A stretch of 64,000 bases of DNA from Escherichia coli (GTDB lineage Bacteria; Pseudomonadota; Gammaproteobacteria; Enterobacterales; Enterobacteriaceae). The position numbers and the translations under genes were made by a program. The notes under the pieces are model-generated. The model was not told where the DNA came from, made no database searches, and saw only the letters and a list, made by a program, of their open reading frames with translations. The stretch lies in the NCBI RefSeq assembly GCF_024700885.2, contig NZ_CP117016.1; one strand, given 5' to 3'. Positions 59,655 through 59,728 of this stretch are shown here, one piece after another; the stretch's first letter is position 1, and each line of letters begins with the position of its first letter.

Positions 59655-59657
59655 TTT

Positions 59658-59690
59658 CACACCGCCAGCTCAGCTGGCGGTGCTGTTTTG
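59658..59690 (+). terminator. Hairpin with U-tract between ackA and pta (partial terminator/attenuator)
   Basis: accgccagct-cagctggcggt followed by GCTGTTTTG, 4 nt after the ackA stop. Confidence 0.5.
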
Positions 59691-59728
59691 TAACCCGCCA
59701 AATCGGCGGTAACGAAAGAGGATAAACC

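Follow-up and report, generated by a model that had tools for sequence, protein, structure and literature searches.

A conserved hairpin and U-rich tail between ackA and pta of Escherichia coli, probably a leaky terminator within the operon

RESULTS

Layout of the ackA-pta spacer

In the 64,000-nt stretch of Escherichia coli DNA analysed here (the window), ackA and pta follow each other on the same strand and are separated by a spacer of 74 nt (Table 1). Read from the ackA stop codon, the spacer is made up of TTTCA, a first hairpin (hairpin 1), its tail CTGTTTTGTA, a second hairpin (hairpin 2), the purine-rich stretch ACGAAAGAGGA, which contains the pta Shine-Dalgarno region, and a further 7 nt that lead to the GTG start codon. 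Region 59400-59900 has matches in 5,424 of 5,426 complete genomes, many of them at 100% identity, and the two genes are annotated there as ackA and pta. K-12 MG1655 is identical to the window over 59600-59760, and adding 2,355,018 to a window position gives the position in NC_000913.3. The window comes from an E. coli other than MG1655 itself, as the loop of the terminator after pta reads AGTGA here and AATCA in K-12 MG1655.

Two further features of the surroundings were recorded. At the 5' end of ackA, the synonymous sites of codons 1-12 (58452-58487) are near-invariant among 21 Enterobacteriaceae (codon entropy 0.05, compared with a gene mean of 0.65), in agreement with the published pairing site of the sRNA SdhX and with the ackA translation-initiation region. 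Beyond the operon, a palindromic hairpin on both strands (AAGAGCCGCAATTGCGGCTCTT, 63591-63612) starts 8 nt past ORF 62042-63583 (yfcC in K-12); a T-run lies directly past the stem on the plus strand and after a short spacer on the minus strand, and the element looks like a bidirectional terminator.

Table 1. Features of the ackA-pta region, in window coordinates
Feature	Position	Strand	Description
ackA	58452-59654	+	Coding sequence; TGA stop at 59652-59654, 5 nt 5' of hairpin 1
Hairpin 1 (terminator stem-loop, putative)	59660-59682	+	Stem CACCGCCAGC/GCTGGCGGTG, loop TCA
Imperfect U-tract CTGTTTTGTA	59683-59692	+	5 T in first 8 bases; first base C
Hairpin 2	59695-59709	+	CCGCC-AAATC-GGCGG; Enterobacteriaceae-specific; no U-tract after it
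ACGAAAGAG	59712-59720	+	Predicted to pair, as 3' strand, with the U-tract (59683-59691); shares bases with the pta Shine-Dalgarno region
pta Shine-Dalgarno region	59716-59722	+	AAGAGGA; core GAGG at 59718-59721; 7 nt 5' of GTG
pta	59729-61873	+	Coding sequence; GTG start at 59729
Operon-end intrinsic terminator after pta	61911-61939	+	12-13 bp stem; 37 nt past stop; tail TTTATTCTCT

Hairpin 1 is a stable, single-copy structure

The stem of hairpin 1 consists of ten perfect pairs, eight of them G-C, closed by a loop of 3 nt, and its folding energy is -18.9 to -20.1 kcal/mol; a predicted bulged CA/UG extension would widen the span to 59658-59685. The first eight bases of the tail, CUGUUUUG, hold five U in an interrupted run, and the TGTTTT within the tail is constant throughout Enterobacteriaceae. 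A first-pass annotation of this DNA had placed a GC-rich hairpin with a tract 4 nt after the ackA stop and about 40 nt before the pta GTG. The element is real and conserved, and the second distance holds, as the T-run ends 38 nt 5' of the GTG; the first has to be corrected, since the stem starts 5 nt past the stop (3 nt if the bulged extension is counted).

Shuffled sequences fold at -9.1 +/- 2.5 kcal/mol, compared with -20.1 kcal/mol for hairpin 1 (z = -4.4), and none of 200 shuffles equals it; for the spacer as a whole, the folding z is -5.6. Under a strict site definition (stem perfect over 9 bp or more, loop of 3-8 nt, 5 or more T among the 9 bases that follow), the two strands of the 64-kb window hold five sites, the pta terminator being one of them, vs an average of 0.2 in shuffles. 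Two more of the five, likewise perfect stems with a T-rich tail, lie at 5904-5933 (+) and 14055-14076 (-) and are presumably terminators of other genes. A loose terminator-pattern scan did not discriminate, with 4 sites found and 5.2 expected in shuffles, and so the significance of hairpin 1 rests on the quality of its stem and on its conservation. Each of 5,423 E. coli genomes has the hairpin at a single place, and the window holds one match when up to three mismatches are allowed. Taken as a whole, hairpin 1 is a real element, far beyond what chance produces.

An Rfam scan of 58000-62500 at a permissive E-value gave chance-level matches only, the best reaching 16.8 bits with a threshold of 39. 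No antiterminator fold was predicted, and hairpin 1 stays intact in both the minimum free energy (MFE) and centroid structures when 100 nt of upstream context are included. As an attenuator or a riboswitch, hairpin 1 would thus be without an exclusive alternative fold and without a match to a known RNA family. Pairing of its 3' arm with the 5' arm of hairpin 2 (GGCGG/CCGCC) was considered as an antiterminator and rejected: the partner is transcribed after the termination decision, and this likeness between the two hairpins is lost where hairpin 2 covaries. A bidirectional terminator was likewise rejected, the tail on the minus strand being TGAAATCA and a convergent gene being absent. An RNase III site at hairpin 1 was set aside because the stem seems too short for one.

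The element is conserved across gammaproteobacteria and covaries as RNA

We fetched 80 loci of AckA relatives, one genome per species, and extracted the spacer between the ackA stop and the pta start from 78 of them. An element was counted if the hairpin had a dG of -8 or lower, 5 or more T among the 8 bases after it and a position within 25 nt of the ackA stop. By this measure, hairpin and T-tract are found at the same place in 67 of the 78 species loci, spanning six gammaproteobacterial groups; a 68th locus fails the filter solely through the choice of an extended stem. The element is present in 20 of 21 loci of Enterobacteriaceae, 20 of 24 of other Enterobacterales, all three of Gilliamella, all three of Aeromonas, all seven of Pasteurellales, 11 of 12 of Vibrionales and three of six of Shewanellaceae. 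Loci from which it is absent comprise shrunken spacers of 41-42 nt, one reduced symbiont and three Shewanella-like genomes. The losses in some genomes imply that the terminator is not indispensable. Yersinia thracica and two Rosenbergiella loci have spacers of 41-42 nt and no hairpin, with gene order kept.

The stem sequences are unrelated across groups (CTGGCTAAC in Vibrio, CTGCCGA in Pasteurellaceae, GGCCGCCC in Aeromonas and GCCTGC in Shewanella). The stem starts 5 nt past the stop in E. coli and 5-22 nt past it in all clades, and in spacers longer than 100 nt the hairpin is still found 7-20 nt from the ackA stop. Six Vibrionales loci with spacers of 106-148 nt carry a second long hairpin, GGGGCU...AGCUUU, often followed by UUUAU, which differs from the small hairpin 2 seen in Enterobacteriaceae.

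When the hairpin was aligned over 30 species of Enterobacterales, 98% of cells were paired, compared with 25-63% in slid controls, and compensatory changes were seen at 7 of 10 pairs, which none of 500 shuffles reached. Wobble cells on the plus strand amount to nine U-G or G-U and two A-C or C-A; as they are mostly U-G on this strand, selection on the sense RNA is indicated. Within the 21 Enterobacteriaceae, both arms of hairpin 1 are constant and the loop is free to vary. At still closer range, 5,139 of 5,423 E. coli genomes are identical across 80 nt, and in a sampled variant with two mismatches both altered positions are unpaired, one lying in the 5-nt spacer and one in the hairpin 2 loop. 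T makes up 0.70 of the 8-nt tail and 0.24 of the rest of the spacers; termination is thereby favoured over a nuclease barrier, which needs no T-tract.

Hairpin 1 scores below the terminator at the end of the operon

The intrinsic terminator after pta offers a comparison within the same genomes. In the window its tail is TTTTATTCT when the shorter stem at 61912-61938 is taken. Both elements were compared in the same 63 genomes, using a d'Aubenton-Carafa-type terminator score in our own implementation (classical threshold, d > 0). The median distance from the stop codon is 10 nt for the ackA hairpin and 30 nt for the pta terminator, and the ackA hairpin is the nearer of the two in 62 of 63 genomes, its search space in this comparison being bounded by the length of the spacer. 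The median number of T in the next 8 bases is 6 as against 7, and the median score 10 as against 32; in Enterobacteriaceae the medians are -7 and +32. Since the compared sequences are phylogenetically related, paired statistics overstate their independence, but the clade-by-clade medians agree and the direction of every difference is identical in every clade.

The tail of the E. coli hairpin counts as U-rich, though weakly so, with a tail score of 1.66 vs 3.6-4.1 for the pta terminator. Its overall score depends on the stem that is chosen: the 10-bp stem yields d = -7.4, slightly under the threshold and far from the +32 or so of the E. coli pta terminator, and the bulged extension yields +14.8. 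Most homologues outside Enterobacteriaceae score above 0. Given the value of -7.4 with the strict stem, termination in E. coli could be very inefficient. The partial termination suggested by the first-pass annotation is thus backed indirectly, by conservation across groups, covariation, T enrichment, and the weakness and stop proximity of the hairpin relative to the pta terminator.

Hairpin 1 as a protective 3' structure

Hairpin 1 might instead be a protective 3' structure and nothing else: a full bicistronic mRNA would be made without termination and cut in the spacer, and the hairpin would block 3'-5' exonucleases, so that the ackA segment outlives the pta segment. Its stability, about -19 to -20 kcal/mol, would suit this role, and ackA hairpins even exceed pta terminators in stability (median -18.1 vs -13.5 kcal/mol). 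The GU/UUU in the tail presumably suits the preference of RNase E. The two roles are compatible, as a terminated ackA mRNA would bear the same hairpin, and protective 3' hairpins are documented in shaping operon stoichiometry (PMC5927463). However, the protective stem-loops of that study are stable hairpins reported without a uridine tract (PMC5927463), whereas the T-tract that follows the ackA hairpin is conserved in distant clades at the T fractions given above (0.70 vs 0.24). Furthermore, ackA-pta was among the operons analysed there but not among the differentially decaying ones (Dar & Sorek 2018, PMC5927463), and tables of RNase E cleavage in Salmonella (TIER-seq) contain neither ackA nor pta. 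The filters of Dar & Sorek dropped gene pairs split by a Term-seq site with a terminator signature (PMC5927463), and the absence of ackA-pta from the decay list is therefore ambiguous, the pair having either been filtered out or shown no imbalance. All in all, we think it unlikely that hairpin 1 works by protection only.

Hairpin 2 and the pta ribosome-binding region

Downstream of hairpin 1, the spacer of Enterobacteriaceae has a second predicted domain, seen in both MFE and centroid predictions, in which the U-tract pairs with ACGAAAGAG to form an outer helix that encloses hairpin 2. Hairpin 2 shows compensatory change at 4 of its 5 pairs; the outer helix is nearly invariant and hence uninformative for covariation, and the AAGAGG of the pta Shine-Dalgarno region does not vary among the 21 species. 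The expected number of pairs between the U-tract and the stretch ahead of the Shine-Dalgarno (pre-SD) is 3-7 in all 21 Enterobacteriaceae (Mangrovibacter, 2.2); beyond this family it is about 0-1.7 at almost every locus, the exception being one Gilliamella locus with 4.8. Opening the pta mRNA from the Shine-Dalgarno to the GUG is predicted to cost 6.4-7.3 kcal/mol with the U-tract, compared with 3.4-3.8 kcal/mol without it. In Enterobacter sp. Ag1 and Cedecea neteri, the U-tract TTGTTTTC pairs with an inserted GAAAAC and not with the pre-SD stretch, and a predicted pairing of a CCTC just 3' of the ackA stop with the pta GAGG would close the spacer over its full length.

The predicted domain, the pairing that sets Enterobacteriaceae apart, the covariation of hairpin 2 and the higher opening cost would all fit a spacer whose main role in this family is translational. 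The U-tract would then pair with the Shine-Dalgarno region and damp pta translation until processing, or shield the AU-rich linker from RNase E, and hairpin 1 would mainly be part of the fold. Several points speak against this. Covariation is silent on the almost invariant outer helix; U-tracts pair with A/G-rich ribosome-binding regions by composition alone; the closely related spacers of one family may reflect a single inherited accident; and in Cedecea and Enterobacter Ag1 the U-tract has a different, upstream partner in GAAAAC. Moreover, the hairpin and T-tract of the other five groups are left unexplained. As the main function of the spacer, we regard translational control as improbable. 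According to the structure predictions, the second domain could damp pta translation on the read-through RNA, protect the AU-rich linker or be a by-product of base composition.

No promoter motif separates hairpin 1 from pta

The first-pass annotation had also suggested a separate promoter for pta, in addition to partial termination or in its place. In E. coli, a scan for sigma-70-type consensus in the 46 nt from hairpin 1 to the GTG gave no -35/-10 pair that matches at 7 or more of 12 positions. Most of the 78 loci have 27-50 nt between hairpin and pta and, in the same type of scan, no promoter-like motif. The proposal is therefore not borne out for the spacer. A pta promoter besides that of ackA has been stated in the literature (PMC5670510); as the spacer offers neither the room nor a motif for one, any such promoter would lie inside ackA, 5' of the hairpin, and its transcripts would also meet the hairpin. 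The best candidate within ackA, TTGTAT-17-GAAAAT at 59434-59462, is weak, and synonymous-site variation shows no dip over the last 100 codons of ackA in the 21 Enterobacteriaceae. Further upstream, at codons 266-288 (59247-59315), synonymous variation dips to 0.24-0.4; the dip coincides with a conserved protein motif rich in Leu/Gly codons and comes with no convincing -35/-10.

Hairpin 1 as a full-stop terminator for ackA, with pta transcribed from its own promoter between the hairpin and the GTG, would agree with the fact that silencing or deleting ackA lowers Pta just partly. Nevertheless, it is very improbable: the 46 nt past the hairpin are without a -35/-10 pair and taken up by hairpin 2 and the Shine-Dalgarno region, the 27-50 nt of most species are free of motifs, the ackA-internal candidates are weak and the synonymous sites of TTGTAT-17-GAAAAT are not conserved, and ackA and pta are reported to be co-transcribed (PMC1635301).

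Finally, a functionless chance inverted repeat or REP-like mobile repeat, as might be argued from the equal yield of the loose terminator scan in shuffles, is effectively refuted by the single copy, the z of -4.4, the conservation in six groups with compensatory changes and the lack of an Rfam match.

DISCUSSION

We consider it likely that hairpin 1 and its U-rich tail are a Rho-independent terminator within the ackA-pta operon that works part of the time. RNA polymerase that started at the ackA promoter, or at a promoter inside ackA, would transcribe the hairpin and pause at the interrupted U-tract, where a fraction of the polymerases would free a monocistronic ackA mRNA with a stable 3' hairpin; the remainder would read through and yield the ackA-pta mRNA. 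Because no promoter was found between hairpin 1 and pta, read-through would be the only route by which these promoters supply pta. Two features, both of them conserved, would make such a terminator leaky. One is the poor U-tract (CUGUUUUG in E. coli), and the other is the position of the stem 5 nt past the stop codon, where the 5' arm would be partly masked by a ribosome that ends ackA translation while following the polymerase closely. We infer from these features that transcription ends at hairpin 1 with some efficiency, that ribosomes affect it there, and that the AckA:Pta ratio, and with it acetyl-phosphate, follows. One would expect more ackA than pta message, and read-through that depends on how efficiently ackA is translated. 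Cells probably obtain more ackA than pta message in this way, and the differing ackA:pta stoichiometry envisaged by the first-pass annotation is plausible.

Published data bear on this terminator from several sides. Co-transcription of ackA and pta is reported (PMC1635301, PMC5670510), and antisense RNA to ackA brought AckA activity down by 78% and that of Pta by 48% (PMC1635301). The sRNA SdhX represses ackA and not pta (PMC6393394, PMC9438474); that Pta is reportedly not lowered argues against a strong dependence of read-through on ackA translation. As to the ribosome, lambda tR2 placed 5 bp past a stop codon fell from an efficiency of ~90% to below 10% (Li et al. 2016, PMC4824070). Efficiency was recovered without upstream translation and saturated beyond ~30 bp, and the cause was hindrance of hairpin folding by the terminating ribosome (PMC4824070). 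By analogy, ribosomes that halt at the stop codon of ackA probably lower the efficiency of the ackA-pta terminator. In the curated Term-seq tables published by Adams et al. 2021 (PMC7815308), no 3' end is given for ackA and none for the pta terminator; as the latter is also missing, the list is not exhaustive, and the absence of ackA from it is weak evidence. The SMRT-Cappable-seq supplements do not mention ackA.

AckA and Pta act sequentially on acetyl-phosphate, a global donor of acetyl and phosphoryl groups, and their ratio sets the size of its pool. The two genes form one operon, yet their regulation is known to be discoordinate, SdhX repressing ackA only; a conserved leaky terminator would be a simple structural reason for unequal levels of ackA and pta mRNA. 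A more speculative proposal, which we put forward as doubtful but worth stating, is that the spacer tunes AckA:Pta, and hence acetyl-phosphate, in two parts. A weak terminator within reach of the ribosome would make co-transcription of pta report on the coupling of translation and transcription in ackA, and in the read-through RNA of Enterobacteriaceae the U-tract would be reused as an anti-Shine-Dalgarno strand. By closing the second, covarying stem-loop over the pta ribosome-binding region, it would damp pta translation by ~3 kcal/mol for as long as the linker stays uncut and unopened. For the engineering of acetate overflow, hairpin 1 is a concrete site for mutation.

Several known systems can be set beside the ackA-pta element. 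In Lactococcus lactis, a terminator is predicted between ackA1 and ackA2 (PMC3956926), a hairpin with poly-U that, like the one described here, follows an acetate kinase stop codon, in this case by 8 bp. There, however, termination is virtually complete, and a promoter has been mapped for the downstream gene, unlike in E. coli, where no promoter motif lies past the hairpin. The REP element of malE-malF and other protective stem-loops (PMC5927463) resemble the ackA hairpin in being stable structures at the 3' end of a first cistron, which would stabilise the upstream segment. In contrast to the ackA hairpin with its conserved T-tract, the protective stem-loops of Dar & Sorek have no U-tract and are mostly found within the coding sequence of the downstream gene. 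With respect to the lambda tR2 series and the pyrBI attenuator (PMC4824070), the distance between the ackA stop and the stem falls within the range in which the ribosome lowered termination in the reporter system, although lambda tR2 is a strong terminator in a synthetic construct and the ackA-pta hairpin a weak one; no attenuator-like alternative fold is predicted 5' of the latter.

The element is of a well-known and ordinary kind, and no new principle is involved. E. coli has many terminators inside operons that are partly read through, and they make up 264 of 1,774 mapped 3' ends (Conway et al. 2014, PMC4161252), and a weaker poly-U goes together with more read-through (Yan et al. 2018, PMC6131387). 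What the ackA-pta spacer adds is modest, namely the depth of its conservation and the second hairpin specific to Enterobacteriaceae. The internal terminators of sdhCDAB-sucABCD (PMC4161252), prs-dauA and dapA-bamC (PMC6131387) differ from the ackA-pta element, which lies unusually near the upstream stop (5 nt) and is known here from its sequence. The likeness is nonetheless close: in each of them a GC-rich hairpin with a U-tract stands between co-transcribed genes of the same strand, the downstream gene needs read-through, and a poorer poly-U comes with more of it.
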